Source: Leucoraja erinacea | Taxonomy: Eukaryota | Direction: 5' to 3' | DNA: 64,000 nt | Assembly: GCF_028641065.1 (NCBI RefSeq) | Contig: NC_073399.1 | Coordinates: forward strand, 32,736,001-32,800,000 | Shown here: in pieces, positions 8,268 through 52,148 of the stretch | Layout of the letters: each line of letters opens with the position of its first letter | Numbering within the stretch: the stretch's first letter is position 1 | The notes under the pieces: model-generated | The model's input: only the letters and a program-made list of their open reading frames with translations | Databases searched by the model: none | What the model was told of the DNA's origin: nothing | Position numbers and translations under genes: made by a program

Positions 8268-9184
8268 CAAGTCAAGTCAAGTTTATTTGTCACATACACA
8301 TGCGAGATGTGCAGTGAAATGAAAGTGGCAATGCTGCGGACTTTTGTGCAAAAGACAAAACAACCAAACAAACCATAAACACAATCATAACACACATATT
8401 CTTTTACATCATAAATAATGGAAGGAAAAACGTCCAGTAGAGTTAGTCCCTGGTGAGATAGGCGTTTACAGTCCGAATTGCCTCTGGGAAGAAACTCCTT
8501 CTCAACCTCTCCGTTCTCACCGCATGGCAACGGAGGCGTTTGCCTGACCGTAGCAGCTGGAACAGTCCGTTGCAGGGGTGGAAGGGGTCTCCCATGATTT
8601 TATTTGCTCTGGAGTTGCACCTCCTGTTGTATAGTTCCTGCAGGGGGGTGAGTGAAGTTCCCATAGTGCGTTCGGCCGAACGCACTACTCTCTGCAGAGC
8701 CTTCCTGTCCTTGGCAGAGCAATTCCCAAACCAGATGGTAATGTTCCCGGACAAGATGCTTTCCACCGCCGATGCGTAGAAGCACTGGAGGATCCTCGGA
8801 GACACTCTGAATTTCCTCAATTGCCTGAGGTGGTAAAGGCGCTGCCTTGCCTTACTCACGAGTGCTGAGGCGTGTGATGCCCATGTCATATCCTCGGAGA
8901 TGTGGACTCCCAGATATTTAAAACAGTTCACCCTATCCACAGGATCCCCATTTATCCTCAATGGAGTGTACGTCCTCGGATGATGTGCCCTCCTAAAGTC
9001 CATGATCAGCTCCTTCGTTTTTTTAATGTTCAAGAGGAGGCAGTTATCCTGGCACCAGAGTGCTAGATCAGCCACCTCCTCCCGGTAGGCCTTCTCGTCG
9101 TTGTCTGAGATCAGGCCCACCACCACAGTGTCATCAGCAAACTTAATTAATGAGTTGGAGCTGAACCTAGCCACACAGTCATGT
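8268..9184 (-). mobile_element. Rex1/Babar-type LINE, 5'-truncated, open RT C-terminal ORF
   Basis: KFADDT, NIKKTKELIMDFRR and FKYLGVHISEDMTW motifs; 3' stem-loop, GTGACAAATAAA and (CTTGA)n tail; near-identical to the copy at 22245-23070. Confidence 0.9.
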
Positions 9185-13524: not shown

Positions 13525-13660
13525 GCATCGTGGCTCAGTGGTTAGTGCTCCCATTTCTGGGTTGGAAGGTTGTGGGTTCAAATCCCACTCCAACGCACAG
13601 AAATCTAGTGATGTTTGGGTGCTGAACAGGGGGAGAACTGCAGTGGTGGGTCTGTTTTTC
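13525..13660 (+). mobile_element. Old tRNA-derived SINE head (SacSINE1/DeuSINE-like)
   Basis: A box GTGGCTCAGTGG and B box GGTTCAAATCC, followed by a body unlike HE1. Family assignment is from recall only. Confidence 0.45.
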
Positions 13661-13694
13661 AAACAGTGGCACAGGCAACACAGGCAGACATGAG

Positions 13695-15240
13695 CACCTC
13701 CATCCCCCACCACGATGGTCTCACAGCCCTCCGGTTCTTCCTCGACCAGAGAAGCAACCCATACCCAGCCACTGACACTCTCCTCCGCCTAGCGGAGCTG
13801 GTCCTTACCCTCAATAACTTCACGTTCGACTCCTCCCACTTCCTCCAAATCCAAGGCGTAGCTATGGGCACACGCATGGGCCCCAGCTATGCCTGCCTAT
13901 TTGTAGGTTACGTTGAGCAATCCTTGTTCAATACATACCAGGGCCCCATCCCCAACCTCTACCTCCGCTACATCGACGACTGCTTTGGTGCCACCTCCTG
14001 CACCCGCACACAACTGACTGACTTCATCCACTTCACCACTAATTTCCATCCGGCACTGAAATACACCTGGACCATTTCCGACACTTCCCTACCATTCCTT
14101 GACCTCACTATCTCCATTGCAGGTGACAGACTTCTAACCGACATACACTACAAACCCACTGACTCCCATGGCTATCTTGACAACACGTCTTCCCACCCTG
14201 CTTCCTGTAAGGACTCCATCCCCTACTCCCAATTCCTCCGTCTACGCCGCATCTGCTCCACGGATGAGGCGTTCCACACCAGGACATCTGAAATGTCCTC
14301 ACTATTCAGGGAACGGGGGTTCCCCTCCTCCACCATAAATGAGGCTCGCACCAGGGTCTCCTCCATACCCCGCAACACTGCTCTCTCTCCCCATCCCCGC
14401 ACTCACAACAAGGGCCGAGTCCCCCTAGTCCTCACCTTTCACCCCACCAGCCGTCACATACAAAAAATAATCCTCCGTCAGTTTCGCCACCTCCAACGTG
14501 ACCCCACTACTCGCCACATCTTCCCATCTCCCCCCATATCTGCCTTCCGCAAAGACCGCTCCCTCCATAACTCCCTTGTCAATTCTTCCCTTCCCTCTCG
14601 GTCCACCCCCTCCCCGGGCACTTTCCCTTGCAACCGCACGAGATGCAACACTTGTCCCTTTACCTCCCCCCTCGACTCCTTTCAAGGACCCAAGCAATCG
14701 TTCCAGGTGCGACAGAGGTTTACCTGCATCTCTTCCAACCTCATCTATTGCGTCCGCTGCTCTAGATGTCAGCAGATCTATATCGGTGAGACCAAGCGGA
14801 GGTTGGGCGATCGTTTCGCCGAACACCTCCGCTCGGTCCGCAATAACCAAGCTGACCTCCCGGTGGCTCAGCACTTCAACTCCCCCTCCCACTCCGCCTC
14901 CGACCTCTCTGTCCTGGGTCTCCTCCATGGCCACAGCGAGCAGCACCGGAAATTGGAGGAACAGCACCTCATATTCCGTTTGGGGAGTTTGCACCCCCGG
15001 GGCATGAACATCGAATTCTCCCAATTTTGTTAGTCCTTGCTGTCTCCTCCCCTTCCTCAGCTCCCCTGCTGTCTCCTCCCACCCTCCAGCCTTCTGGCTA
15101 CTCCTCCTTTTCCCTTTCTTGTCCCCACCTACCCCTACCCCCGATCAGTCTGAAGAAGGGTTTCGGCCCGAAACGTTGCCTATTTCCTTCGCTCCATAGA
15201 TGCTGCTGCACCCGCTGAGTTTCTCCAGCTTTTCTGTGTA
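13695..15240 (+). mobile_element. Penelope-like retroelement, 5'-truncated, open RT + GIY-YIG ORF, with 3' terminal repeat
   Basis: GVAMGT and YLRYIDD (RT); NLIY..YIGET and RFAEH (GIY-YIG); 15-bp TSD ACAGGCAGACATGAG at 13680-13694 and 15241-15255; inserted inside a SINE. Confidence 0.95.
15150..15177 (+). ncRNA. Minimal hammerhead-ribozyme-like motif in the Penelope terminal repeat
   Basis: CUGAAGA-A-[GGGU UUCG GCCC]-GAAA-CG-UU. Penelope-like elements are known to carry minimal hammerheads. Stem I is weak and there is an extra A. Confidence 0.65.
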
Positions 15241-18182: not shown

Positions 18183-18580
18183 TACACTGTCAGCATAAAA
18201 CAAGGCAGCATGTAGCTGTACCTGTGACTCTTGTGGTCTATTAAGTTAAGGCTGGGTGTTTGTCAGGCTGATGGGATAAGTCTGAACTTGGATTTAGAAT
18301 GCAAGAAAGAATGTCATGCTTAGACTTTCAACATTTGTCAATTTCATATTACAATAAAAAACATGTTGAAAATTGTCAAAAAACAAATTTAATGATAATG
18401 ATATTTTCTTCGTCATCAAAGATTTACAATGTTGCCAAGAAATTTGAGTAATCATATAGCAAAGGCTATCTTTCTTTTATACTTGAGTGACGCCTGATCA
18501 TAATCTTCTGAATGTCAAGTCTCTTCTTGTTATTTCAGCTCCGTTTATACACCCTTCATTCACTCTTCTTTTCTGAAGGA

Positions 18581-18699
18581 TCAGATCTCAGTCAATTGGC
18601 TTGGAAACAAGTAAAATATAATTAGCTGTTTGAATTGTGATTTATCAGTACTTTGAGCTGTGGTGGAAATATCGAGACATGATGATGTTGCTAATTTAC
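18581..18699 (-). CDS. IgSF receptor, tentative last coding exon (GKLATSSCLDISTTAQSTDKSQFKQLIIFYLFPSQLTEI*)
   Basis: Acceptor ..CCTATTATCATAATCATTCAG; phase 1 gives 39 open codons in unique sequence, ending T-E-I. An alternative acceptor at ~18600 would give a much shorter tail. Confidence 0.45.
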
Positions 18700-19920
18700 C
18701 TGAATGATTATGATAATAGGCAAGAGGGTTTTTCATATCCTAATCTAACACTTGTTTCAGGAATTTAACTTGATAAAATAATTTAGTTTGCAGATCATGT
18801 AAAGTCTTGTCACTTCAACTCTGTGCCATCTGTCACGAAATAAAGGGCAGCACAGCAGCGCAGCTAGTAGTGCTGTTGGCCCGCAGTGCCAGAGACCCAG
18901 TTGCGAACTTAACCTCGAGTGCTGTCTGTGTGGAGTTTGCACATTCTCCGTGTGGGTTGCCTCTGGGTGCTCTGCTTTCCTCCCACATCCCACAGATTGC
19001 ACTTTGGGAAGTCAAATGCAAGAGGAATGTATACAATAAATGATAGGACTCTTAGGAGCACTGATGTACAAAGGGGTCTTAGGGATAGACACAAAAAGCT
19101 GGAGTAACTCAGCGGGTCAGGCAGCATCTCTGGAGAAAAGGAATAGGGGATGTTTCGGGTCGAGACCCTTCTTCAGTCTTCAAGGGATCTTGAGGTGCAA
19201 GTTCATAGCTCCTCGAAAGTGACACACAGTAGTCAAGCTGGTAGAGAAGGCATGGTTCCCTTCATCGGTGATGATGTTGACAATTCAGGAAGTCAGGTTG
19301 TAACTGCGTAACATATTGGTGACGTTGCATTTGGACTATTGTGAGCAGGTTGTTGTTGCCGTACTGCAGAAAAGGAGAGGGGGTGTTGAAGAGGGTGAAA
19401 AATGGGCTTACCTAGATTCTGGATTGATTAGAGAATTTTCTAAATTCTAAAAGGAGAGATTGAACAAACATGATTGTTTTATCTGGAGCATTGAGGTTTG
19501 ATGGAGGTTGATAGAGGTTTATAGAATAATGAGCGGGTAAATAGTCAGTCTTTTTCCCAGTGTGCAAATGTCAAATACTTGAGGGTATAGCTTTAAGCTG
19601 AGAGAGGGATAGTTTAAAGGAGATTGACCAGGCAAGTTTTCTTAACACAGCCGTAAGTGCCTGGAGTACACAACCAGGGAAAGTGTTGGAAGCAACATTT
19701 AAGAGGTGTTTAGACAGGATTTGGTCAGGAAGAAAATGGACGGATATATACAATGGCTGATGGAATGAATTTAGATTGGCATCACAGTCTGTGCATACAT
19801 TGTTGGCCAAAGGGCCTGGTCCCATGCAACACCATTCCATGTGCTACGTTCTAATTAAAGGTAAAGAAGGCGCTCTTATTTGACATTGTAAAACATTTTA
19901 TTTTAAAAAAATTGACATAC

Positions 19921-19965
19921 CTATTAGATTTGACCGTGATGTTTCAGAAAATCTCCTCATCGATG
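19921..19965 (-). CDS. IgSF receptor cytoplasmic exon (ASMRRFSETSRSNLI)
   Basis: Acceptor GATTTTCTCTAAAG, donor G|GTATGT; 45 nt, phase 1-1, open frame, unique sequence. Confidence 0.7.
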
Positions 19966-20884
19966 CTTTAGAGAAAATCACAACATTATTATTCAAGTAA
20001 ATGTCAGGTTAGCAGTAGGTTAGAGTTGAAAGATTATTTCCTAGATAGCATTGCTTCATAAACATGCACCATGTCACACTCCTGTCTAACACCAAACTCT
20101 CGTCTTTTTTTAAACTCTAGATGTGTCTCGAGGTGTTAGGCGAATGGGCCAATGTAAGGCTAATGGAGTTTACTGTGGATAATCATTTACATTGGTACTT
20201 AAAACAGGAAGGCATTATTACTCGAGTCAATGATAGACTGGCAAAAGAAAATGTGCTGATGCCTGGTGTCCATGTGCACCAATTGTTGAGATTGAATCCT
20301 AGCGAGCCGCAGCCATGTGCCCAAAAACAGGCTGGGGTGGAATGGGAGAACTCGGAAACCACCCGGTGGGGAGGATGGAGAGAAACGGTGGCGGACACTG
20401 GATACAGGGCCCCTGTGAGGCACTGCCCATCCCAACAACTGGCCCGACTCACCCGCTGCGAGAGGAGGAGGATAGAAGGAGACGACGGCGGTTGCTGGAC
20501 CAAGGGCCCAGTAAGAAGAACTGGGGGTCTTATGTTCTGCTCCCTCAAGTTCCGTTGCGGGAAGCGCCCCCCCCCCCCCTCCCAAGAACAAGGGATAAGG
20601 CAGCGGTGCAAGGAGAGGGACATCGGATCGCGGGACGACACAGATTGAAACGATGGCTTTAACAAGCTTTTGTGGCCGGCTGCAGCAGGGACTGTAAGAT
20701 GGCATCAAAATGGCACCTCTTGCATACAACTAGTGCACTGTTCTACATTCTGTGTTAACTGGTAGATGGTGCTTATGTACGTGGATAATCTTGCTGAGTT
20801 TTATGCAAAAAATGTATTTCACTGTACCTGGGTACACATGACAACAAAGAAACATTGAACCATTGAAAGCAGCATTCAGTTTAG

Positions 20885-21190
20885 GTTAGTTTAGTTTAGA
20901 GATACAGCATGGAAACAGGTCCTTTGGTGCACCAAGTCCACACCGACCAGCGATCCCCGCTCATTAACACAAGCCTGCACACACTAGGGACAATTTACAC
21001 ATACACCAAGCCAATGAACATACATACCTGTTTGTCTTTGGAGTGTGGGAGGAAACTGACGATCTCGCAGAAAACCCATGCGGTCACGGGGAGAACGTAC
21101 AAACTCTAGACAGACAGCGCCCGTAGTCAGGATCGAACCCGGGTCTCTGGTGCTGCAAGTACTGTAAGCAGCATCTCTACCCATGCACCA
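20885..21190 (-). mobile_element. HE1-like V-SINE
   Basis: B box GGTTCGATCC, V-SINE-like core GAGTTTGTACGTTCTCCCCGTGACC, (AAACT)n tail. Further copies at about 13075-13330, 18845-18990, 21475-21915, 28990-29285, 29440-29655, 32325-32580, 32700-32950, 33540-33815, 34140-34345, 42635-42915, 54535-54700, 55215-55505 and 63420-63635. Confidence 0.85.
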
Positions 21191-21983
21191 CTGGCCAGCC
21201 ACCCACGTCGTGGCTGCTTCAGCTAGCAAGGCCTCCATTGCAAGAAAGTTTGAGTACAGGAGCAAGGCTGAACTGTGCAACTGCACAAGATCTGGCTGAA
21301 ATCCAATCTGTTTCATGTGCTATTTTGATCCCATTGATGTGAGCAGGAATGTGTTTGTTATGGAAGGATTGAGTGGTTGTTCACTAGACTGATTCCCGTG
21401 ATGGAGACATTGATGGGTGGGCAGAGAATAGGTTAGTCAGATCTATATTCACACAAGATTAGAATAAAGAGAAAATAGGTGGCTCAGTGGCACAGCGAGT
21501 GGAGCTGCTGCCTCACGGCACCAAAGGCCCGGGTTCAATTCTGACCTCGGGTGCTGTCTGTGTGGAGTTTGCACGTTCTCCATATAACCGTGTGGGTTTC
21601 CTCTGGGTGCTCCGGTTTCCTCCCACATCCCAAAGATGTGCAGGATTGTAGTTTAATTGGCCTCTATAAAAAAAATGTCGCATTGTGGCACCCATACATA
21701 ACGTGCTCCAAAAATAACAAGTTAACTCTCCATTTTATAGCTGGCTGCATATGATATAAATTCAGGAGATAACAGTGACAGGGACCAAGAGAAGTCTGTG
21801 TTGGAGAGTGGATGCAAAAGGGGGATAACATAGAACTAATGTGAACAGTCGATCGATGGTCGGCATGGACTAGGTGGGCCGAAGGGCCTGTTTTCATGCT
21901 GTATCATTAAACTAAATGATTCTTTGAAAACTGCTATGCAAAAATCAGTTTTTCCCTTTCAATTATCAGAATTAATAGTTTAC

Positions 21984-22124
21984 CTCGAGATGACCGTTTT
22001 TTGTAGTAAAACATTGCTGAGAATATCAGAAGCATTAAGAAAACCACGGATAGAATAAGACCAACACCAGTTCTCTCCCTGTCTTTTGATTTCTCCAATG
22101 CTGCTGTATTTGAGTACCCAGATC
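21984..22124 (-). CDS. IgSF receptor stalk + transmembrane exon (GSGYSNTAALEKSKDRERTGVGLILSVVFLMLLIFSAMFYYKKRSSR)
   Basis: Acceptor TTATTTTCTATTTCAG, donor G|GTAAAC; 141 nt, phase 1-1; ~22-aa uncharged hydrophobic helix followed by KKR stop-transfer. Confidence 0.88.
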
Positions 22125-22244
22125 CTGAAATAGAAAATAAATAATTAACGTGTCTCAAAAGGAAGAATATACTTTACTTTAGACTTTAGAGATGCAGCAG
22201 GGAAACAGGTCCTTCAGCCCACCTAGTCCGTGCTAACCCCATGC

Positions 22245-23070
22245 ATCTAGCACTCTGGTGCCAGGATAACAGCCTCCTCTTGAACATCAAAAAAACGAAG
22301 GAGCTGATCATGGACTTTAGGAGAGCACATCATCCGAGGACGTACACTCCATTGAGGATAAATGGGGATCCTGTGGATAGGGTGAACTGTTTTAAATATC
22401 TGGGAGTCCACATCTCCGAGGATATGACATGGGCATCACACGCCTCAGCACTCGTGAGTAAGGCAAGGCAGCGCCTTTACCACCTCAGGCAATTGAGGAA
22501 ATTCAGAGTGTCTCTGAGGATCCTCCAGTGCTTCTACGCAGCGGCGGTGGAAAGCATCTTGTCCGGGAACATTACCATCTGGTTTGGGAATTGCTCTGCC
22601 AAGGACAAGAAGGCTCTGCAGAGAGTAATGCGTTCAGCCGAACGCACTATGGGAACTTCACTCACCCCCCTGCAGGAACTATACAACAGGAGGTGCAACT
22701 CCAGAGTAAACAAAATCATGGGAGACCTCTTCCACCCCTGCAACGGACTGTTCCAGCTGCTACGGTCAGGCAAACGCCTCCGTTGCCATGCGGTGAGAAC
22801 GGAGAGGTTGAGAAGGAGTTTCTTCCCAGAGGCAATTCGCAATTACAGAGACTGTAAACGCCTATCTCACCAGGGACTAACTCTACAGAACGTTTTTCCT
22901 TCCATTATTTATTATGTAAAAGAATATGTGTGTTATGATTGTGTTTATAATTTGTTTGGTTGTTTTGTTGTTTGTCTTTTGCACAAAAGTCCGCGAGCAT
23001 TGCCACTTTCATTTCACTGCACATCTCGTATGTGTATGTGACAAATAAACTCGACTTGACTTGACTTGAC
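22245..23070 (+). mobile_element. Rex1/Babar-type LINE, 5'-truncated
   Basis: Near-identical to 8268-9184; (GACTT)n tail. Confidence 0.9.
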
Positions 23071-24274
23071 TAGCACTATTCTACACACCCAGGACAATTT
23101 ACAGAAGCACCTGGAGAAAACCCAAACTCCGTACAGACAACTACTGTCGTCAGGATCAAACCTGGGTCTCTGGTGCTGTAAGTCAGAAGCTCTACCACTG
23201 AACTGCTCTGATTTCTTCTTGATAAAGTAGATTTTATAATTTATTTATACAAGGCACTTGTGACACAGAATGGACAGGAATCTGAGACCAGGGAATAAGG
23301 ACAATACTAATGGAGACTCAACTCTGGATGACGGTTAAACCCAATGCGGGGCTCACTGAAATTCCATTGTAATCATAACTAACTTATGAAAATTATGTGT
23401 CCAGAAGCCTTGGAAAAAACCATGCCTCACATCAAGCAGCAAAGCTTACAGAGGAGGGGAGTCAGAGAGTGTGGAGGGCCCTTGGAGAGATACCCAGCAG
23501 GGGATGCAGAGAACGAAGGGGGACCTGGCTGGGGTGGGGGGTCACCGAGATCAAAGGGGGGGGGGATCCAGCGGAAGAGGGGAGTGGGCTGTTGCCACTT
23601 GCGGCTGCAGGCAGTTGATAGGACTGTTCGGCGCAGTTTTGTAACTTAGTCAGTGCCAAAACATGGCAACACTTGTGTACTGCCTCGGTGAAGTCTGCTA
23701 TATAATTTTACAAGGTTGTTTGCAAAACAAAGCATTTCACTGTATCGAGACATGTGCAACATTAAAGTATCATTGAATCATTGAGTATTCAACACTGTGA
23801 TTCTTCAGAGATGGAACTCAGTTTATAGCTTGAAGGATTTTCGGTTGACTCACTCTCTGCAATGAGTTTTATTTTATAGTCAAAGTTAACCTATTATTGC
23901 CTGATTGCAATTAGAGCAAAAAATGGCCTAAACATTTAACATTTTCATTATGTTTGCAACATTAAAGAACTAGTTCCAATCAAAATCATCGCATCGATAA
24001 TAATAAAAATAACATATAACTATGCAATGAAGGGTGGAACAGTGACTCAGCTGGTAAAACACTTCCAGTCCGAGCGGCGATGGGTCTTTCAATTAAATCC
24101 TAGCGCTTTGGCTCAACTGGAGAGACCTACATCAGGTAACGCCGTAGTGGTAGTTGACTCAATAGTGGGAGGTACGGATAGGAGATTCTGTGGAAACAGG
24201 CGAGATTCGAGGTGTTGCCTCCCTGGTGCCAGTGTTCAAGACATCTTGAATTGATTGCTGGGCATCCTCAAAGG

Positions 24275-25114
24275 CAGGGGTGGAAATCCCAGGGGGGTGG
24301 AGGGGCGGGGCAGGGGACACACGTCCCCCGGTTTTGAGAGGTGGGGGACGAACCCCCCCATTTTTTGTAATCCGGATTTTAAAACCCGGTGAAATCTTCG
24401 CTTTCCGCGAGACAGTGGGGGTGGGACTGCTGATCGAGGGCGCCGATTGGATGGGAGAGACGTGGGGGCGGGACATGATGATTCAGCGCGATCATTGGAG
24501 GAGGGTCCTGTCGGTCACAGGCGGAAGTGGAGGGGGGGGGGGTGGGGGGTGGGACTGAGGATAGAACGTGGTCATTGGAGGAGGGAGACGTGCCAAAACA
24601 CTCTTGGCAGCCCTGGACACCAACCTGCGCCTCATCCGCAGCCAGGATCGACCCCGGCTCTCCGGCGCTGCAATCGCTGCCGAACTGCCACTGGACCATC
24701 TCCAGGGGGTGGCCAGAGACGTCGGGAGTCAGACAGGAGCTGTGCCCCCAGGCCCATAGCCAGCACAGAGAAGCAGCGCTAAATCTAGCTCAACTCTGCC
24801 TGTCCTGCCAGGTTAACCTACAGCCCTGCCTGGATTTACGGGAAATATGGCCCAGGTTTACAGCCAGCGCGGAGAAGCAGGACTAGCTCCACGACTCCAG
24901 GCTGGTGTCTCGTCAGTCCAGGCAGGGCTGTAGGTTAACCCGGCGAGACAGGCAGAGTTGAGCTGCATTTAGCGCTGGATTGAGCTGAAATAACCGTTCA
25001 AAAGGCCCACGGCTGAAGCCTCTGAAGGCTCGCGTGTGAGTGAGTGTGCACATGCGCGCGCGGTCGCCAAGAAGTGGTGTCCCCCCCATATTTTGATAGC
25101 GATTTCCGTGCCTG
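24275..25114. mobile_element. Non-autonomous hAT element nested in CR1 ORF1
   Basis: TIRs CAGGGGTGGAAATC / GATTTCCGTGCCTG; 8-bp TSD CTCAAAGG / CTCAAGGG; internal ~60-bp inverted repeat 24773-24834 vs 24916-24978. Confidence 0.85.
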
Positions 25115-25485
25115 CTCAAGGGGGAAGGGGAGCAGCTGGAAGTGGTTGTGCAAGTTGGCACAAATGACGTTGGGAAGAAGAGGAAGGAGGTTCTGCAACA
25201 CGAGTTTAATGATTTCGGAAGAAGGCTGAAAAGCAGGACCTCTAGGGTGTTTATCTCTGAATTGCTTCCAGTACCTCATGCTGGTGAGGGCAGAAACAGG
25301 GAGATAGGGGATCTGAATGTACAGCTGAGGGGCATATGCAGGGGGCAAGGATTTTGATTTATAGACCACTGGGATCTCTTCTGGGGTAAGGGGGACTTGT
25401 ACCATAGGGATGGGTTACACCTTAACTGGAGGGGGACCAACATTCTGGCAAGTAGGTTTGTTAGTTCTGCACAGGGTGGGTTAGA

Positions 25486-26360
25486 CATAGAAACATCGAA
25501 AATAGGTGCAGGAGTAGGCCATTCGGCCCTTCGAGCCTGCACCGCCATTCAATATGATCATGGCTGATCATCCAACTCTGTATCCCGTACCTGCCTCTCT
25601 CCATACCCCCTGATCCCCTTAGCCACAAGGGCCACATCTAACTACCTCTGAAATATAGCCAATGATCTGGCCTCAACTGCCTTCTGTGGCAGAGAATTCC
25701 AGAGATTCACCACTCTCTGTGTGAAAAATGGTTTTCTCATCTCGGTCCTAAAAGACTTCCCCCTTATCCTCAAACTGTGACCCCTTGTTCTGGACTTCCC
25801 CAACATCGGGAACAATCTTCCTGCATCTAGCCTGTCCAACCCCTTAAGAATTTTGTAAGTTTCTATAAGATCCCCCCTCAATCTTCTAAATTCTAGCGAG
25901 TATAAGCCGAGTCTATCCAGTCATTCTTCATACGATAGTCCTGACATCTCAGGAATCAGTCTGGTGAACCTTCTCTGTACTCCCTCTATGGCAAGAATGT
26001 ATTTCCTCAGATTAGGAGTCAAAAACTGTACGCAATACTCCAGGTGTGGTCTCACCAAGACCCTGTACAACTGGAGTAGAACCTCCCTGCTCCTATACTC
26101 AAATCCTTTTGCTATGAATGCTAACATACCATTCGCTTACTTCACTGCCTGCTGCACCTGCATGCCTACTTTCTGAAGAAGGGATTCATCCCGAAACGTC
26201 ACCTATTTCCTTCGCTCCGTAGATGCTGCTGCACCCGCTGAGTTTCTCCAGCATTTTTGTGTACCTTCTGCCTACTTTCAATGGCTGGTGTACCATGACA
26301 CCCAGGCCTCGTTGCATCTCCCCTTTTCCTAATCGGCCACCATTCAGATAATAATCTGGG
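25486..26360 (-). mobile_element. CR1 family A LINE 3' portion
   Basis: LVRPHLEYCVQF and TRGHSL motifs; tail with a private TTTTCGATG variant. Confidence 0.9.
26174..26268 (+). mobile_element. 95-bp Penelope terminal mini-insertion starting at the hammerhead-like core
   Basis: 11-bp TSD TGCCTACTTTC (26163-26173, 26269-26279); (C)TGAAGAAGGGATTCATCCCGAAACGTC. Confidence 0.8.
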
Positions 26361-26964
26361 TTTAAACTAAATAGCCGGGGGGGGGGGGGGGGGGGGGGAA
26401 TCGACAAATTGGAAGTACAAAGATGGAGTTAAAGGGGAAGAGAGTAAAGTTATGAAAGACACCTGAATTAATGGAACGGAAAGTTCAAGAAAGAATAAGA
26501 GAGTAAGGTCAAGTGAAATAGGAACTGGTGTGAGAGGGGAGGTGAATACCAAATTTAAAATGTTATATATGAATGTGGGAAGTATAAGAAATAAAGTAGA
26601 TGAGCTTGGGGCTCAGTTAGGGCTCCAATTACTTTATTATATGATAAATCAGGTCATAAATGAACCATGAGATTAAAGTAAACTGAGATACAATAGGTGC
26701 TAAGAGTTCTCTATTACTCAGTCAAGGTGTTGTATCTATAAATCTAGAGATAATAGTTGTAGGAGCTGTTATAAATGGAATGACCAAGCCAAATAAAACA
26801 CTCAACAATATCGTAATTGCAGATTTCCAGTAATAGGATTTCTGTATGTTTATCTCTGGGACCACTGCCAACTCCATATGTCCATATATACCATTAAAGG
26901 CACTAAATAAGTCGGAAAAACAAGGGAATGCAGATGCTGGTTTACAAACAAAAATACAAATTTT

Positions 26965-27437
26965 ACTAAAATGTTGCCTGGGTTTCAGCACCTAAGTTAC
27001 AGAGAAAGGTTGAACAAGATAGGTCTTTATTCTTTGGAGCACAGAATGTTACAGGGGGACTTGATAGAGGTCTTTAAAATTAAGAGAGGGATAGACAGAG
27101 TTGACGTGGATAAGCTTTTTCCATTGAGAGTAGGGACGATTCAAACAAGAGGACATGATTTGATAATTAAGGGACAAAAGTTTAGGGGTAACATGAGGGG
27201 GAACTTCTTTACTCAGAGAGTGGTAGCTGTGTAGAATGAGCTTCCAGTGGAAGTGGTGGAGGCAGGTTTGATTTTATCATTTAAAAATAAATTGGATAGG
27301 TATATGGACGGGAAAGGAATGGAGGGTTATGGTCTGAGTGCAGGTAGATGGGTCTAGGTGAGAGTAAGTGTTCGGCCCGGACTAGAAGGGCCGAGATGGC
27401 CTGTTTCCATGCTGTAATTGTTATATGGTTATATGGT
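26965..27437 (+). mobile_element. CR1/HER1-like LINE 3' portion (family B)
   Basis: Homologous to 11484-12007. Confidence 0.9.
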
Positions 27438-27456
27438 TGTAAAGTGCCGGAGTTGA

Positions 27457-27692
27457 GGGCCTGTTCCTCTTTCAAGACCTAATTCACAACCTTTTTTACT
27501 CGTGGACATTTTTCATCACGCTAGAAAAAACGCCCCCGACCTACTTGATGCCACGAGTACCTACAACTAGCATCACAGCCTGCTACGACTTACCTCCAAC
27601 CTCCTCTGACCTTGTGAGGGCTATGCTGCGAGTATGATTCAAAGGCAAAGTCGGCAGAGGTCGTGAATTAGGTGTGAAATTGGGAAAGGCCC
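27457..27692. mobile_element. PIF/Harbinger-like MITE
   Basis: ~35-bp imperfect TIRs GGGCCTGTTCCTCTTTCAAGACCTAATTCAC / GTGAATTAGGTGTGAAATTGGGAAAGGCCC; flanks TGA/TTA. Confidence 0.65.
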
Positions 27693-28647
27693 TTATCACA
27701 GACAGCATCTCTGGAAGACATGGATAGGTGACGTTTCAGGTCAGGACTCTTCTTAAGACTGCAGGAGGGAGGGGGAAAAGACGGAAAAGAGGTGGGGGCA
27801 TGACAAATCCTGGTGAATGATAGGTAGATACAGGATAAAGGGGGGTTGGTGTTGCAGATTGGAGGGCACTGAGCCAGAAATGCCAAATATCGTACAGTTC
27901 CTTCACATTTATCTACCTTTCATTTGAAATGACTCTGGATAGCTTACAGCTCCTTGCTCTCATCAAATAGCAGAAAACTGATGAAGTTTGTGTATCAATA
28001 ATAAGACTTCTCTACTTGTCATTCACAAAGGCCACTTGTTGCACAATTTATCAATATCTGATATTTCTCCATCAAAACCTTCTATTTTCTCAATTCTCAC
28101 AGCATTTAATATGTAAACTGAATCTTCATGAGAGGAATAGATCGGGTAGATGCACAGAGTCTTTTGCCCAGAGTACGGGAATCAAGGACCAGAGGACATA
28201 GGTTCAAGGTGAAGGGAAAAGATTTAATAGGAATCGGAGGGGTGACTTTTTCACACAAAGGATCTTGGGTGCACGGAACAAGCTGCCAGAGGAGGTAGTT
28301 GAGGCTGGGACTATGCCATAATTTAAGAAACAATAAGACAGGTATATGAATAGGACAGGTTTGGAGAAATATGGATCAAACGCTGGCAAGTGGGACTAGT
28401 GTAGCTGGGACACTGTTGGCCGGTGTGGGCGAGTTAGGCTGAAGGGCCTGCTTCCACACTGTATCACTCTATGGCTACTAAGGGTCTCGACCCGAAACGT
28501 CACCCATTCCTTCTCTTGACAGATGCTGCCTGGCCCGCTGAGTTACTCCAGCATGTTGTGTCTATTTTCCGTTTAAACCAGCATCTGCAGTTCTCCCCTA
28601 AACATGATCTCACTTACGCATCCACTCCCTGGTGCAATATTACTCAC

Positions 28648-28953
28648 CTTCAACGATCAAAGTGATGAGCGCAAAGTCATATCCATGATCTTTACGCACA
28701 GTATACCGATACGTTCCGTTATCTGACAGTTCCGTTTTATGGATAATCAGTGACAGATCATATGGGTCTTGATGGCGTAATTGGATTCGATCCTGACCTC
28801 CAAGAACATTCAATGTTTCATCACGGGTTGGATCTTGATGCAGTTTTATTAATGTGATGTTAGTTGGACCTGTTGTATCTGTTTTGCACGGTAGGGTGGT
28901 ATCCTCATGCAGTTTTCCTGTCACAGATTCGTTACAAACCAAAGTCACAGATG
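28648..28953 (-). CDS. IgSF receptor, second V-set-like domain exon
   Basis: Acceptor TCTTTCTATGATTTTCAG, donor G|GTGAGT; 306 nt, phase 1-1, open; TTLPC, DLSLIIHKTELSDNGTYRY, ITLIVE. Confidence 0.88.
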
Positions 28954-29799
28954 CTGAAAATCATAGAAAGAAGAGGGACAGGCCTTTTAGAACGCCGCGG
29001 TGCATCAGTAGAGCTGCTGCCTCACAGCGGCAAAGACCCGGGTTCGATCCTGACCTTGGGTGCTATCTGTGTGGAGTTTGCATGCTCACCCTGTGACCAT
29101 GTGGGTTTTCTCTGGTTCCCTCCTGTATTCCAAAGACGTGCGGGTTTGTAGGTTTATTGGCCTCTGAAAGTTGCCCAAAGTGTGCAGGGTGCAAAGGGGG
29201 ATAACATAGAACTAATGTGGGGGTGATAATGGTTGGCATGGGCTCGGTGGGCTGATGGGCCTGATTCCATACTATCACTCTATGATTAAGGGTCTCAACC
29301 AGAAATGTCACCCATTCCTTCTCTCCAGAGATGCTGCCTGGCCCACTGAGTTACTCCAGCACTTTGTGTTTATTTTCTGTTTAAACCAGCATCTGCAGTT
29401 CCTCCCCACACATTATCTCACTTGCTCATCCACTCCCTGCACACTAGGGGGAGGTTTACTTTTATAGAGACCAAATAATTCCCACAACCCACAAAACTTT
29501 GGGATGTGGGAGGAAACCAGAGCACCCGGAGGAAACCCACGCGGTCATAGGGAGAACGTGCAAACTCCACACAGACAGCACCCGAGGTCAGGATCAAACC
29601 CGGGTTTCTGGCGCTGGAGGCAGCTGCCCAACCACAGCTGTGCCACTGTGCCGCCCACTAAAGAAATATAGAGTTTAAAAAAAAAGCCGTGGTAATACTC
29701 TCTGAACGTAATCCTCAACATTCCATAAATTTACCAAACTCACACCTGTGCTTTGGAAGCGGAAAGCTGCAATTTATTAACAATTAACTGTAACCAGTA

Positions 29800-31897
29800 C
29801 AGGTGCACAACCTTTTATCCGAAGATCCAAATAACGAAAGCCTCCGAATAGCGGACATTTTTTCGGTCCTTGAAGAAAGGTCCTTGAAAACGTTCACCGA
29901 GGGCGGCCCGCAGAGGTGACAGCGGAACCTCTGGTCGGTCCTCGAAGAAAAGGGAACTAAATCCCCATTCATAAAAGAGAAGGTGAGGGTATATTGCGCA
30001 GGAGGGTTAATAATTGACAATATGCTGCTACCTGCCCGCTGCGTTAAAAAGTTCCCACGGTAGACACGATACACAGTGTATCGTGAGTCTTGCGTGGGAA
30101 CTTTTTAACTCAGCGTGCAGGCAGCAGTAGATTGTCGCTCCCTTCAGTTTCACCCCACCTACACCCCTCTGCTTCCCGGCCATGTGTGTGACCCCTTCCC
30201 CCCCCTCTCCAGCTCCCCGCTCAATGCACCGGCGCGGGGGCTTTGTACTGTCTTCACGTCGCGATGCTAGCAGCACAGTGCAGTCACCGGAGACGTCAGG
30301 ACCAACGGAACACCGACCCCCAGGCCCACTGCAAGCACGGAGATCCCAGATCAGCAACTCCAGCCCAGCCCCGTTCCAACTCCAGAGGAACACGCTCCCT
30401 GTATGGGCAGAAGCTGATGGTGTGCAAGGGCTCCGTCTTGTTCTTGGGGTCGCGCAGCTCGGGCTGTGGGCGAACTGCCACTTGTCGCCATAGCGGCCCA
30501 CTGGGGAGCGGATTCCTCTGGAGTTGGAGGGGGAGGGGGGTATTGTGCTGTTTGATCGCCCCCTACTATCCCAGGGACAGTGAGACAGGACGTTCACCGA
30601 GGGCGGCCCGCAGAGGTGACAGTGGAACCTCCGGTCGGTCCTCGAAGAAAGGGGAACTAAATCCCCATCCATAAATGAGAAGGTGAGGGTATATTGCGCG
30701 GGAGGGTTAATAATTGACAATATGCTGCTGTCTGCCCGCTGAGTTAAAAAGTTCCCACGGTAGACTCACGATACACAGTGTATCGTGAGTCTTGTGTGGG
30801 AACTTTTTAACTCAGCGTGCAGGCAGCAGCAGATTGTCGCTCCCTTCAGTTTCACCCCACCTACACCCCTCTGCTCCCCGGCCATGTGTGTGACCCCTTC
30901 CCTCCCCTCTCCAGCTCCCCGCTCATTGCACCAGCGCGGGGGCTTTGTACTGTCTTCATGTCGGCGATGGCAGCAGGCCAGTGCAGTCACTGGAGACGTC
31001 AGGACCAATTGGACGTCGACCACCAGGCCCACCGCAAGCACGGAGAACCCAGAGACCCACAGCCAACAGCAGCCCAGCCCAGCCCCGCTCCAACTACAGA
31101 GGAACCTGGGTTGCGGATGACGGGGCGCAGCTTGGGGCGTCGTAGGGGCCCATCGGGGAGCGGGTTCCTGTTGGTCCTGACGTCTCCGGCCACCTGCTAT
31201 CCTCCGGGAACTGTACCGCCCTTGCAGGAGAGTGGGGTTGTTTGCAGTTGCAGAGGGAGGGGGCAAGGGCGGTACAGTTCCCTGTCTCAGCTCCAGTCCA
31301 GGGGGGTGGCCGGAGACGTCAGGACCAACGGGACAGCGACCCCCAGGCCCACTGCAAGCACGGAGACCCACAGCCAGCAGCAACTCCAGCCCAGCCCCGC
31401 TCCAACTCCAGAGGAACACGTAGGGGCAGAAGCGGATGGTGTGCAAGGTGTTCTTGGGGTGGCGCAGCTCGGGCTGTGGGCAAACTGCCACTTGTCGCCG
31501 TAGCGGCCCATCGGGGAGCGGATTCCTCTGGAGTTGGAGGGGGAGGGGGGTATTGTGCTGTTTGATCGCCCCCTGCTATCCCAGGGACAGGGAGACACAG
31601 CGGCTTTTTAGACTGGTGGGCAATCACTTCCAAAGTTCTGCCCACACAGTCAGTACACCTCTCCTACACTGCATTTCATACTGCAAGAAAAAACGACATT
31701 GAAGACTCAAACTCGCGACCGAGTAACTGCCGGGATCAAGGCGCAAACTCGCGACCTTGCGGATATGAGCCGAGCACTCTACCACTGAGCCAGCCATTAA
31801 AATCTACGCTAAAAAATTTCCATTCCGAAGACCGACAAATTCTGAATTACGAAAAGTGTCTGGTCCCAAGGCTTTCGGATAAAAGGTTGTGCACCTG
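29800..31897. mobile_element. Non-autonomous Tc1/mariner (pogo/Tigger-like) element with internal tandem amplification
   Basis: 24-bp perfect TIRs CAGGTGCACAACCTTTTATCCGAA and TA target duplication; ~700-bp unit at 29890-30589 repeated from 30590. Confidence 0.85.
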
Positions 31898-31943
31898 TAT
31901 TTAAAAAGTGAAAGAAAGGAAGAGAAAGTACAATATTACTCAC

Positions 31944-32279
31944 CTTCAACGATCAAAGTGATGAGAGCAGATGCATGTCCATGTGTTGCATACAAGGCAT
32001 ACTGATACGTCCCGTTATCTGACAGCTCCGTTTTATGGATTATCAGTGACAGATCATGTTGACAACGTAATTCATCTTGACAACGTAATTGGATTCGATC
32101 CTGACCTCTACGAACATTTTCACTTGAGGTGGAGATCAATTTTTTATTACGGGTTTGATTTTGATGCAGTTTTATAAATCTGATGTCAACTGGGTCTGTT
32201 GTATCTGTTTTGCACGGTAAGATGGTATCCTCATGCAGTATTCCTGTCACTGATGCGTTACAATCCAAAGTCACAAATG
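31944..32279 (-). CDS. IgSF receptor, first V-set-like domain exon
   Basis: Acceptor TCTTTCTATGATTTTCAG, donor G|GTGAGT; 336 nt, phase 1-1, open; TILPC, DLSLIIHKTELSDNGTYQY, ITLIVE. Confidence 0.9.
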
Positions 32280-32964
32280 CTGAAAATCATAGAAAGAAGA
32301 GGAACAGGCCTTTTAGAACAGAGTGGTGCAACCCTGGAGCTGCTGCCTCACAGCGGCAACGACCCGGGCGCTATCTGTGTGGAGTTTGCAGGTTTTCCCT
32401 GTGATCCTGTGGGTTTTCTCCGGTTTCCTCCTATATTCCAAAGACGTGCGGGTTTGTAGGTTAATTGGCCTAAGTAGGCAGGGTGCAAAAGTGGGATAAC
32501 ATGGAAGTGTACGGGTGATCATGGTTGGCATGGGCTCGGTGGGCCGAAGGGCCTGTTTCCATGCTGTATCTCTGAACTTAAAACTAAACACAACATCTGT
32601 GCCAAACATGTTGTCAACATAAACTGATCTCATCTGCCTGCACGTGACAACATGCCTCCATTACCTGAATATCCATAAGCTTCCATCAACTTCTAGTAGA
32701 GTTTAGAGATATGGCCTTTCAGCTCACCAAATCTGCACAAACCACCAATCACTTGTTCATACTAGTTCTATGTTGTCCCACTTTCCCTACAAGTCACGGG
32801 CAATTTACAGAGGCTAGTTAACCTGTAAATCCATCTTTTGAGATGTGGGAGGAAACCAGAGCACCAGGGGAAACCCACGCGGTCACAAGTTGAACGTGCA
32901 AACACCACACAGACAGTAACTGAGAGCAGCATCAAACCCGGGCCTCTGGGTTTTAGGTACTTAC

Positions 32965-33028
32965 TTTCTGCAGAGGGTACGCATAAGTGTAGAATGAAAT
33001 AAAGATAAAATGTGAGGCATAAATCCAT
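32965..33028 (-). CDS. IgSF receptor signal-peptide exon (MDLCLTFYLYFILHLCVPSAE-T)
   Basis: ATG at 33028, hydrophobic leader, perfect phase-1 donor A|GTAAGT; a pyrimidine-rich acceptor before 33046 suggests an upstream non-coding exon. Confidence 0.85.
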
Positions 33029-34524
33029 TTCCAGAATTCAGTTCACCTGCCGATATAAAGATAATACGAAAAAAGTTACAATCTTTCAGATCTCATAAAA
33101 TCAATTCCACTTTTCTTGTGCTCCCTAAGCTTGGAAGGTAGGACATTTACTGACATTTTGGTTGTTGAAAATAATGGAATTAAATGTTCCAGTGAAAATG
33201 TATTGAATAAATCACGTGTAATGTTTAAAGGGAATTGATCATCCCTTTGGAAAACTTTAGTGCCCCTCTCTCGTGGCTTTCCATTTGCCGATGCCTCTAT
33301 GAGATGTTTCACTAGCAGCTTGGGTTCAGGGTTTAAGTTTATTATTGTCACGTGTATAATGAAAGGCTTTTCTTTGCGTGCTACCCAATCCAGTCAAATA
33401 ATACTGCACACAAATGCAATCAAACCAAACACAAGTACAAAAGGTAGAATGAAGCTAAAGGTACCAGAGTGCAGAATATAGTTCTCAGGATTGTATCGTC
33501 TGGAAATAGTGATAGATTTACAGGTGGTATATTTAGACTTTAGATTTACAGTGTGGCGACCCTTTGACCCATCGCGTCTGCGTTGACCAGCGACCTCCCT
33601 GGACCCTCGCACTATCCTACACACTAGGAACAATTTACAATTCACAGAAGCCAATTAACCTAGAAACCTTTGGATTGTGGGAGAAAACCGGAGCACCCGG
33701 AGAAAACCCATATGGTCACAGGGAGAATGTACAAACTCGGTACAGACAGCACCCGTAGTCAGGATCGAACCCGGACCTTTTGTGCTGTAAGGCAGCAACT
33801 CTACCGCTGTGCCGCTGTACGGCACTATGTTGCCCCAGATGATAAGAGATCCTCCTGTGGGACCAGCATGTAAAGAGTCGCCATGCTCCGACATTATCTT
33901 GGCCTGATCATCTTGGCTTGGCAGGGGTGATGGAAAAACACTTTGTTCAAGCAGTAGTGTGTGTGTGAGAAAGGCATGGTTGTGTTTTTCAGCACCTTAA
34001 CCTGAGCCGTAACAGTCTGGGCTTGTTGGCTGCGGGCACTTTTGTAGCCAAGAACTACCCTTAACTATTTACAGTTCAGAATGCAGCAGCCACTACATGC
34101 TAATGGAACCAGGTACAAAACAATTTAACTATCGTAAGCACGAGGGACAATTTACAATGTTTGTCGAAGCCATTTAACCTATAAATCTATGCGTCTTTGG
34201 AATGCGAGAGGAAACCGGAGCACCTGGGTAAAACCATGTGGTCACAGTGAGAACGTACAAACTTCGAACAGACAGCACCCGTAGTCAGGATCAAATCCGG
34301 GACTCTGGCGCTGTAAAGCAGCAACTCTACTGCTGTGCCACCGTGACACCGCAATAATACGGGGAGTTCTTACAAGGAAATAGAGGTCTTGAAATATCTC
34401 CTGCAAGTACAATTAAGAAGAATCCTAAATCATTCTATAAGTTATTAGGAACAAGAAGGTAGCCATGGAAAGAGGGGAGGGAAATGTCTCCTTCACAATC
34501 ATACACATGAGGGAGCCACACGAT

Positions 34525-43418: not shown

Positions 43419-44402
43419 ATCTCCAAACTCTAGATTTAGCTTTCCTACATTAACCCCAGATGCCTTGATATGCTTCTTGTCTAAAATCAGTCAGTAATTG
43501 AGTTGACTGGGCCGCCATCGGCTTCTTTGGTAGAATTGTCCAAAGCAAAGTTTAACATATGGTGAGATTTTGACGGCGTTGGGCCTATTCTCTCTGGAGT
43601 CTGGCAGGATGAATGGGAGCCTCATTGAAAACTACTGAATAGCAAAGTGCCTGGATTGAGTGGATGTGGAGAGGATGTTTCCGCATGTGGAGAGGATGTG
43701 ACCAGTGGGCATAGCCTCAAGATAAAAGGACATACCTTTACAAAGGAGATGAGGATGAATGTCTTTAGCTAGTTGGTGGTGAATTTGTGGAATTCATTGC
43801 CATGGAGTGCTGTGGGGACTGTAATTGGGTATTTTTAAGGTGCAGAATATTGATTAGTAAGGGTGTCAAGGGTTTTGGGGGGTAGGCAGTAGAATGGGGT
43901 TGAGAGGGATAGATAGATCAGCCATGATTGAATGCCGGAATAGACTTGATGGGTCAAATGGCCTAATTCTGCTCCTATGACTTATGAACTTCACGGCCCC
44001 CCGGGAGATGACGTTCCTTACCCCCGTTGTCCTGAACAGCTGATTCCTGAACCTAGACGTGATGTCAGCACCAGATACATGAGCTGATTAGTGTTCTGTA
44101 ATTATCATTGCACACCACATCAAACGTTTGGGAGTTTTTCATGAGATCATCTCTCATTCTTGCAAACTCTCTCTCGAGGATCAATCCACTTAGCCTCACC
44201 AACAAAACCCTTCTCCCACGATAGACACAAAGTGCTGGAGTAACTCAGCGGGTCAGGCAGCATCTCTGGAGAAAAGGAATATGTGATATTTTGGGTCAGA
44301 CCCTTCTCCAGATGCTGCTTTATATCATCAACATCTGCAGTTCCTTCCTACACATTTTGCCTGCTCCCTAGAATCAATCTGGTGAGCTTTAGTATTAAAG
44401 TC

Positions 44403-44824
44403 GAAACATAGAAAATAGGTGCAGGAGTTGGCAATTCGGCCGTTCGAGCCTGTACCGCCATTCAATATGATCATGGCTGATCATCCAACTCAGTATCCTG
44501 TACCTGCCTTCTCTCCATACCCCCTGATCCCTTTAGCCACAAGGATCACATCTAACTCCCTCTTAAATATAGCCAATGAACTGGCCTCAACTACTTTCTG
44601 CGGCAGAGAATTCCAGAGATTCACCACTCTGTGTGAAAAATGTTTTTCTTATCTCGGTCCTAAAAGACTTCCCCTTTATCCTTAAACTGTGACCCCTTGT
44701 TCTGGACTTCCCCAACATCGGGAACAATCTTCCTGCATCTAGCCTGTCCAACCCCTAAAGAATTTTGTAAGTTTCTATAAGATCCCCGCTCAATCTTCTA
44801 AATTCTAGCGAGTACAAGCCGAGT
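44403..44824 (-). mobile_element. CR1 family A LINE 3' portion (donor of templated copy at 51320-52102)
   Basis: Family A 3' UTR and tail. Confidence 0.9.
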
Positions 44825-49050: not shown

Positions 49051-49647
49051 NNNNNNNNNNNNNNNNNNNNNNNNNNNNNNNNNNNNNNNNNNNNNNNNNN
49101 NNNNNNNNNNNNNNNNNNNNNNNNNNNNNNNNNNNNNNNNNNNNNNNNNNNNNNNNNNNNNNNNNNNNNNNNNNNNNNNNNNNNNNNNNNNNNNNNNNNN
49201 NNNNNNNNNNNNNNNNNNNNNNNNNNNNNNNNNNNNNNNNNNNNNNNNNNNNNNNNNNNNNNNNNNNNNNNNNNNNNNNNNNNNNNNNNNNNNNNNNNNN
49301 NNNNNNNNNNNNNNNNNNNNNNNNNNNNNNNNNNNNNNNNNNNNNNNNNNNNNNNNNNNNNNNNNNNNNNNNNNNNNNNNNNNNNNNNNNNNNNNNNNNN
49401 NNNNNNNNNNNNNNNNNNNNNNNNNNNNNNNNNNNNNNNNNNNNNNNNNNNNNNNNNNNNNNNNNNNNNNNNNNNNNNNNNNNNNNNNNNNNNNNNNNNN
49501 NNNNNNNNNNNNNNNNNNNNNNNNNNNNNNNNNNNNNNNNNNNNNNNNNNNNNNNNNNNNNNNNNNNNNNNNNNNNNNNNNNNNNNNNNNNNNNNNNNNN
49601 NNNNNNNNNNNNNNNNNNNNNNNNNNNNNNNNNNNNNNNNNNNNNNA
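49051..49647. other. Assembly gap (597 N)
   Basis: Run of N. Confidence 1.
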
Positions 49648-50869: not shown

Positions 50870-52148
50870 ATGTCTTATGAAGAAAGACTGGATAGACTTG
50901 GTTTATACTCTCTAGAATTTAGGAGATTGAGAGGGGATCTTATAGAAACTTACAAAATTCTTAAGGGGTTGGACAGGCTAGATGCAGGAAGATTGTTCCC
51001 GATGTTGGGGAAGTCCAGGACAAGGGGTCACAGCTTAAGGATAAGGGGGAAATCCTTTAGAACCGAGATGAGGAGAACTTTTTTCACACAGAGAGTGGTG
51101 AATCTCTGGAACTCTCTGCCACAGAGGGTAGTTGAGGCCAGTTCATTGGCTATATTTAAGAGGGAGTTAGATGTGGCCCTTGTGGCTAAAGGGATCAGGG
51201 GGTATGGAGTGAAGGCAGGGATGGGATACTGAGTTGGATGATCAGCCATGATCATATTGAATGGCGGTGCAGGCTCGAATGGCCGAATGGCCTACTCCTG
51301 CACCTATTTTCTATGTTTCGACTTTAATACTAAAGCTCACCAGATTGATTCTAGGGAGCAGGCAAAATGTGTAGGAAGGAACTGCAGATGTTGATGATAT
51401 AAAGCAGCATCTGGAGAAAGGTCTGACCCAAAGTATCACATATTCCTTTTCTCCAGAGATGCTGCCTGACCCGCTGAGTTACTCCAGCACTTTGTGTCTA
51501 TCGTGGGAGAAGGGTTTTGTTGGCGAGGCTAAGTGGATTGATCCTCGAGAGAGAGTTTGCAAGAATGAGAGATGATCTCATGAAAAACTCCCAACCTTTT
51601 GATGTGGTGTGCAATGATAATTACAGAACACTAATCAGCTCATGTATCTGGTGCTGACATCACGTCTAGGTTCAGGAATCAGCTGTTCAGGACAATGGGG
51701 AGAAGGAACATTATCTCCCAGGGGGCCGTGAAGTTCATAAGTCATAGGAGCAGAATTAGGCCATTTGACCCATCAAGTCTATTCCGGCATTCAATCATGG
51801 CTGATCTATCTATCCCTCTCAACCCCATTCTACTGCCTACCCCCCAAAACCCTTGACACCCTTACTAATCAATATTCTGCACCTTAAAAATACCCAATTA
51901 CAGTCCCCACAGCACTCCATAGCAATGAATTCCACAAATTCACCACCAACTAGCTAAAGACATTCATCCTCATCTCCTTTGTAAAGGTATGTCCTTTTAT
52001 CTTGAGGCTATGCCCACTGGTCACATCCTCTCCACATGCAGAAACATCCTCTTCACATCCACTCAATCCAGGCACTTTGCTATTCAGTAGTTTTCAATGA
52101 GGGCCGAATGGCCTACTCCTGCACCTAATTTCTATGTTTCTATGTTTC
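50870..52148 (+). mobile_element. CR1 family A LINE with duplicated tail enclosing a 783-bp inverted copy of 43620-44402
   Basis: Tail 1 ends at 51319, insert 51320-52102, tail 2 at 52102-52148. Confidence 0.85.

Follow-up and report, generated by a model that had tools for sequence, protein, structure and literature searches.

A skate B7-like membrane protein with two V domains, an altered cysteine pattern and a variable membrane-distal domain

Introduction

The stretch of Leucoraja erinacea DNA analysed here (64,000 nucleotides of contig NC_073399.1, positions 32,736,001 to 32,800,000; hereafter the window) carries on its minus strand the gene LOC129708458, annotated as uncharacterised. An initial annotation, made from the DNA alone, had read it as a membrane receptor of the immunoglobulin superfamily (IgSF) with two variable-type (V) domains, both devoid of the canonical disulfide bond between strands B and F and of the strand-C tryptophan. 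What is such a protein related to, how are its domains held together, and what might it do on the cell surface? Alignments and trees place the gene in an unnamed B7-like family of fish, across which the rewired cysteine domain is already found; special to skates are the V-V form and the diversity of the first domain (V1). This diversity, centred on the BC loop and the C-C'/F-G face among the 21 Leucoraja-type sequences compared, is the new observation. The explanation proposed here, to which we give an even chance as a whole, is a V-V B7-like ligand with a bond between strands A and B, a second domain (V2) acting as spacer, and V1 alleles under pressure.

Gene structure and encoded protein

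LOC129708458 is a real gene. Five minus-strand exons with AG/GT ends, all in phase 1, join into 297 residues without a stop, and the joined translation is that of RefSeq isoform X1 (P0011, Leucoraja erinacea) at 297/297 positions. This identity bears out the predicted order of leader, V, V, stalk, transmembrane (TM) segment and tail, joined at consensus splice sites of one phase. The predicted length of about 336 amino acids (aa) was too great, isoform X1 having 299 aa, and the 39-residue last exon once proposed at 18699-18581 (acceptor at 18700) is unsupported, a long tail being present in 0/25 skate proteins; a minor isoform with this tail may exist. The C-termini of 25/25 skate proteins, which end two residues past the 45-nucleotide (nt) exon, fit an acceptor at 18599. 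The coding parts are as follows.

32965..33046, minus strand: leader exon, with ATG at 33028 and a 21-residue signal peptide (P0011 residues 1-21)
31944..32279, minus strand: V1 exon, 336 nt, phase 1-1, the variable domain
28648..28953, minus strand: V2 exon, 306 nt, phase 1-1, with Cys140/Cys156 and little variation
21984..22124, minus strand: stalk and TM exon; TM uncharged, hydropathy peak from residue 256, basic stop-transfer residues
19921..19965, minus strand: cytoplasmic tail exon of 45 nt; it encodes RRxS and lacks a tyrosine motif
18592..18599, minus strand: start of the last coding exon, finishing Ala298, Asn299 and the stop, with the 3' untranslated region (UTR) next

The leader exon has 18 nt of 5' UTR downstream of an AG acceptor, by which a non-coding exon further upstream is implied, and an ATTAAA lies at 18393 in the 3' UTR region. 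Searched against Pfam V-set, as had been proposed, the two V exons score 34.2 and 34.9 bits, above the cut-off of 26 bits. In both reference domains the canonical B-F cysteine pair and the C-strand tryptophan are absent; the F-strand motif DNGTYxY and the C-strand sequences IRFIK and ITLIK read as first described, as do all six N-glycan sequons and the A-strand cysteine 16 residues before the B-strand cysteine (Cys28/Cys44 in V1, Cys140/Cys156 in V2). In V1 a tyrosine occupies the F-strand cysteine position, and there is a second cysteine pair, Cys88/Cys94, which had been overlooked. The V2 exon is 85% identical to the V1 exon in DNA. RefSeq isoform X2 skips V2, and a V2-skipping isoform is annotated in two skates. 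Three other candidate exons were dropped as having, by eye, stops inside or no counterpart in P0011: a hydrophobic frame near 26700-26870 and AG/GT candidates near 23300 and 23900.

The initial annotation had held an orthologue to be unassignable; LOC116988133 (Amblyraja) and LOC144594901 (Rhinoraja) are orthologues. The gene is further represented by 20 unnamed database proteins (18 full-length, two without the leader). Because the contigs bearing these records measure 965-1532 nt and the coding exons span 14.4 kb in the genome, the contigs are probably spliced transcripts. Among sequencing runs, 11 matched part of V1, none of them at half of its words, and no RNA run was listed; this counts as no evidence.

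Variation of the membrane-distal domain

The RefSeq protein and the 20 unnamed proteins make up the Leucoraja-type set of 21 sequences. Across it, V1 has 30/112 variable sites, which form 10 haplotypes with up to 20 differences, so that database copies differ by up to 18% in this domain. Variation is far lower in V2 (8/102 sites; Fisher p=3e-4 against V1), in the stalk and TM (3/47) and in the tail (0/17). Within V1, 24 of the 30 variable sites fall in 59 residues that run from the BC loop through C'' and include F-G (p=5e-4). Strands B, D and E vary nowhere, and the reading frame is kept in 21/21; the BC and FG loops of V2 have zero variable sites. Glycan sequons are created in some V1 variants and lost from others. 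Compared with Amblyraja, the reference shows 19 differences in V1 and 6 in V2; the most divergent V1 sequences within the Leucoraja-type set, at 20 differences, are about as far apart as the reference is from Amblyraja.

How the variants are combined bears on their origin. Three V1 types are each paired with both stalk variants, and all 20 unnamed records carry a 6-residue V2 deletion of the Leucoraja gene, found in neither Amblyraja nor Rhinoraja; together, these observations fit one recombining gene pool. A 2-residue stalk deletion is linked to Ser240Pro in 6/6 cases (P0003, P0008, P0010, P0015, P0023 and P0025) and is therefore likely an allele and not a product of alternative splicing. It is moderately probable that the V1 types are alleles of one locus, and we infer selection on the V1 face. 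Several points weigh against this reading. The variation is known at the amino-acid level only, and the species and individuals behind the 20 records are unlabelled; chimeric assembly of co-expressed paralogues could shuffle variants into the same pattern; the relatives form tandem multigene families, so hidden paralogues are plausible. The segments of the variable face were picked after the sites had been seen, and the sites are not independent.

The main alternative is that the V1 types stem from recent paralogues, from copy-number variation or from sister species, the protein being the same B7-like ligand in a small gene family. This is possible, if on the unlikely side. Sharks, stingrays and the coelacanth have several members per chromosome, the 20 records bear no species label, and some 16 kb upstream the assembly has a gap, flanked by a 97% inverted duplication. 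However, across the 64 kb V1 and V2 are each present as a single exon, and one annotated V-V gene was returned per genome in three skate genomes. V2, TM and tail hardly vary, the V1 types are found in free combination with variants of leader, V2 and stalk, and the 6-residue V2 deletion is common to all 20 records and absent in Amblyraja and Rhinoraja. Alleles of one locus are thus still preferred.

An unnamed B7-like family in fish

Members of the family to which the skate V-V gene is assigned by sequence comparison occur in sharks, rays, bichirs, sturgeons, bowfin, teleosts and coelacanth. Alignment searches reached sawfish, devil rays, stingrays and many sharks, often with several members on one chromosome. 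An exhaustive profile search, from whose 150 listed matches 20 compact ones covering most of the profile were chosen, added proteins of bichir, reedfish, sturgeon, bowfin, teleosts (zgc:174863-type) and coelacanth; none of the 20 chosen is from a tetrapod, and tetrapod members are still possible. The proposal of a lineage-specific elasmobranch receptor consequently fails for the cysteine pattern, found also in bichir, sturgeon, bowfin, teleost and coelacanth, and holds for the V-V form alone, which was seen in three skates.

The relatives in sharks, rays, sawfish and stingrays are V-C proteins, with a constant-type (C) domain that is CD80-like or of the butyrophilin (BTN) type. When family profiles were compared with the PDB, in a ranking where long multi-Ig proteins gain from the sum of their domains, the best V-C matches were CD276 (B7-H3), then PD-L1. 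The resemblance to the B7-H3/PD-L1 branch lies in these matches and in the V-then-C layout and C-domain motifs of the shark and ray relatives; the skate gene departs from that branch in its extra A-strand cysteine, its lack of the tryptophan, the F-strand cysteine and a C domain, and its two V domains. The RefSeq labels "PD-L1-like", "CD276-like" and "BTN-like" on family members are automatic. In a V-domain tree of 62 hand-picked rows and 115 columns, with long branches flagged, 57 family rows split at 98/97 from five outgroup rows that are B7-H3-, PD-L1-, BTN- or HHLA2-like, as labelled by likeness to PDB matches. This family clade leaves out the two B7-H3-like rows (98/97, on a short alignment), which speaks against identity as a B7-H3 (CD276) orthologue. 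Nor is the gene to be identified with PD-L1 (CD274): the PD-L1 proper of skate and of catshark is encoded by other genes, whose motifs are canonical (PMC12151841, supplement 1), and the published Amblyraja PD-L1, with canonical motifs, is XP_032874294, the orthologue of the skate V-V gene being XP_032900532.

The zgc:174863 or "CD276 antigen-like" genes of teleost, sturgeon, bowfin, bichir and coelacanth share with the skate gene an A-strand cysteine 15-17 residues before the B-strand cysteine and often an RRxS tail. They differ from it in being mostly V-C, with the F-strand cysteine kept in 29/90 family domains; no function for them was found in the literature searches. Across the family, the FG loop has a glycine in 90/90 domains, and a tail motif R[RK]x[ST] occurs in 35/67 members (RRxSxxP in 17/67), counts that have no chance control; the RRxS tail may resemble the end of human CD80. 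Pfam run on 68 family members gave generic Ig families only among the 25 of 40 matches listed, and atlas searches gave generic V-set clusters among the rows listed. The family was undescribed in the literature searched, the main B7-evolution paper and subscription fish-B7 papers, which may name it, lying outside that scope; it is not described in the available parts of PMC13262535, PMC3964593, PMC9245511 and bioRxiv 2021.06.11.448072.

The initial annotation had likened the domains to those of CD2/CEACAM-type receptors, a comparison that is not sustained, as the relatives are V-C proteins with CD276 and PD-L1 as their best V-C matches. CD2 and CEACAM N domains resemble the skate V domains in being V domains without a B-F bond and, for CEACAM, in variation on the membrane-distal GFC face. 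In CD2, SLAM and CEACAM proteins, an N-terminal V domain without the B-strand cysteine is followed by C2 domains. In contrast, the B-strand cysteine is invariant here, and the second domain is V in skates and a B7-type C in the relatives. One CEA entry appeared in the PDB ranking, with a far lower score over a short stretch.

Regarding descent, a CD80-like C ectodomain is absent from the skate V-V gene and present in its shark, sawfish and stingray relatives, so the gene descends from a V-C form with loss of C. The two V domains of the skates fall into a single clade (100/100), whose sister group is made up of the V-C genes of sawfish and stingrays (98/91); the skate lineage therefore lost the C exon and duplicated the V exon. 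Two V-like exons only, one V1 and one V2, were found in the window, and no C-exon remnant was seen among the matches listed, which cover about 4 of 7 queries. The duplication itself can be traced in the DNA.

28632..32471, no strand assigned: tandem duplication unit, in which V exons and intron flanks repeat at a spacing of about 3.3 kb with 85-90% identity (repeat families D1, D11, D12, D18)

V1 and V2 of Rhinoraja group with each other (99/92), hence either homogenisation or a separate duplication took place there. Rhinoraja also has a conventional V-C member (P0082) on the same chromosome as its V-V gene (P0005); the searches brought up no counterpart of P0082 in Leucoraja or Amblyraja. Some family members (P0030, P0041-P0043, P0066, P0076, P0077 and P0094) have a V-C-C layout or a long series of V domains, exon duplication recurring across the family.

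The cysteine core

The idea that an A-B strand bond replaces the canonical one had been put forward for this gene. The two-V-domain membrane IgSF protein and the comparative retention of the cysteines stand; the bond itself is predicted. From 192 V domains collected, 130 remained after 90% clustering (90 family and 40 other). Both A- and B-strand cysteines are retained in 61/61 of the non-redundant domains without the F-strand cysteine, and 39/39 of those without the A-strand cysteine retain the F-strand cysteine and the tryptophan; all three core cysteines occur in 30/130, one of the 30 being an outgroup protein in which the alignment is probably at fault. Clustering at 50% leaves 16 (no F-strand cysteine), 17 (no A-strand cysteine) and 21 (all three). 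The B-strand cysteine is invariant in the family and is thus kept when its canonical partner is lost, as an A-B bond predicts. Its spacing from the A-strand cysteine is 16 in 74 of the 90 family domains, 15 in 15 and 17 in 1. The A-strand cysteine position in V domains faces the B-strand cysteine across neighbouring strands. A structure model of V1 built on 68 sequences is a V sandwich with a predicted local distance difference test (pLDDT) score of 83, and 92-97 over residues 1-20, in which strand A ends with the first cysteine and strand B contains the second; a full-length model from 14 sequences (pLDDT 56.5) was unusable and was set aside. From retention and model together, it is highly probable that a predicted Cys28-Cys44 bond replaces the canonical B-F bond.

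The closest precedent, by analogy, would be SECTM1 (K12), a CD7 ligand reported as eutherian-only, although what was found does not place it in the family. SECTM1 is reported to have invariant Cys38 and Cys55, an atypical same-sheet bond modelled under restraint, and the F-strand motif GxYxWxLxGxQ, and it was absent by BLAST from fish, birds and marsupials (PMC4603632; see also PMC8515872 and PMC13223139). It is like the family in its V-like domain, its two close N-terminal cysteines and an aromatic residue at the F-strand cysteine position, and unlike the skate gene in its spacing (17 vs 16), its FG-loop motif and its single Ig domain. Could the family be the counterpart in fish of mammalian SECTM1 and the stock from which it arose, and the skate protein a CD7-type co-stimulatory ligand? 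Besides the two invariant N-terminal cysteines and the related motif, GxYx[WYF]x[LIV] is present in 59/90 family domains vs 0/40 others (GxYxWxL in 2), and skate isoform X2 is V-TM, like SECTM1. However, the full GxYxWxLxGxQ motif occurs in 0/90, the SECTM1 spacing of 17 in 1/90 (16 in 74/90), no SECTM1-named match came up in family searches and no SECTM1 cluster among the rows listed in atlas searches, no CD7-like V exon lies in the window, the published BLAST result runs the other way, and convergence is plausible. The proposition is an unlikely one.

Some points weigh against the predicted bond. The V domains were collected by likeness to a query having the A-strand cysteine, therefore the argument holds within the family only; the model supports strand placement of the cysteines, not a Cys-Cys distance; the SECTM1 bond is itself a restrained model; and where three core cysteines coexist, in 30/130 domains and 6/21 V1 variants, pairing may differ. 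The latter six had also escaped the initial annotation: the V1 type of P0003, P0013, P0018, P0022, P0024 and P0025 carries a cysteine where the canonical F-strand one would stand, without the sequon next to it, giving a three-cysteine core like that of many bony-fish members. Three-cysteine members followed by two-cysteine members suggest a natural series for a possible exchange of the canonical for the A-B disulfide. As for the additional pair, a short direct repeat in V1 (protein residues 86-95) creates Cys88/Cys94 in the D-E loop; the pair is found in Leucoraja and Amblyraja, is absent in Rhinoraja, and likely forms an extra disulfide.

A proposed role

The 299-residue V-V-membrane-short-tail protein is likely, by analogy, a cell-surface ligand. 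Its TM has no charged residue and its 23-residue cytoplasmic tail carries a basic RRxS only, with no tyrosine motif; a ligand or adhesion molecule therefore fits better than a signalling receptor. B7 proteins bind through their membrane-distal V domain, so V1 likely presents the binding face, and its BC-loop/C-C'/F-G face likely contacts the partner (for B7/CD28 pairing, see PMC11599192). Below it, with Cys28-Cys44 likely standing in for the canonical bond of V1, V2 is likely a spacer that keeps the two-domain height after loss of the C domain. The V1 differences are likely alleles kept by immune or pathogen pressure on the binding face, the most likely selective agent being a pathogen that uses or mimics it.

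Could the variation instead come from a loosening of constraint on V1, or from gene conversion between the two V exons once they had been duplicated, without selection on a binding face? The Rhinoraja grouping of V1 with V2 (99/92) indicates that homogenisation or repeated duplication occurs, and paralogues, too, are least conserved in the variable segments. V2, however, has the same fold and no variable sites in its BC and FG loops, and in V1 strands B, D and E do not vary and the frame holds in 21/21; this explanation is quite improbable. Least probable of all is V1 as an allele-specific homophilic adhesion or allorecognition domain, selected for self/non-self and not by pathogens: deep patchwork variation is limited to the membrane-distal domain and V domains of nectin, CAR and SLAM type are among the tied fold matches, but such ties are common to all V domains and, by sequence, the solved structures nearest to the family belong to heterophilic B7 ligands. 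The fold matches of the V1 model were indeed tied (VSIG4, CD155, B7-H6, nectin-4 and B7-H3, Z scores 13.8-14.3), B7-H3 and B7-H6 being among the top ties (Z 13.8-14.2, root-mean-square deviation 2.1, 105-108 aligned residues). B7-H4 came up as a fold tie only (Z 13.1) and is absent from the 60 top sequence matches listed. A V1 homodimer prediction scored 0.00 with its alignment not used, and gives no verdict either way.

Other features of the window

No neighbouring gene was recognised in the window by Pfam on 68/90 long frames, a search that short exons would escape; three of these frames gave repeat-type matches. The intron between V1 and V2 holds a further element.

29798..31899, no strand assigned: element with terminal inverted repeats and internal tandem copies of about 700 nt that are 95-96% alike, non-coding for the receptor

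Two long interspersed nuclear element (LINE)-like fragments at 8474-9068 and 22245-22839 are 98% identical and in opposite orientation, one of them inside the V2-TM intron. On the plus strand, a 473-codon stop-free frame at 13612-15030, in a repeat-like stretch, has no Pfam match at 0.001 and looks, by eye, like a retroelement fragment. The inverted duplication upstream of the gene measures 1021 nt (43620-44640 and 51082-52102) and flanks a gap of 596 N (49051-49646); it is possibly an assembly join.

Significance

Many fish genes labelled "PD-L1-like" or "CD276-like" in RefSeq belong to a separate branch. If the link to SECTM1 were true, this branch would provide an origin for a gene reported from eutherians only; that the skate locus is a single-locus immune gene outside the major histocompatibility complex (MHC), with MHC-like ancient allelic lineages on its binding face, and at the same time part of a B7 branch with an A-B strand disulfide ancestral to SECTM1, is a highly improbable conjunction. 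Where surface genes outside the MHC are highly variable, they usually sit at an interface between host and pathogen or between self and non-self. Should V1 be allelic, the skate gene would be a testable candidate for such an interface in a model cartilaginous fish, with V2 as its built-in control.

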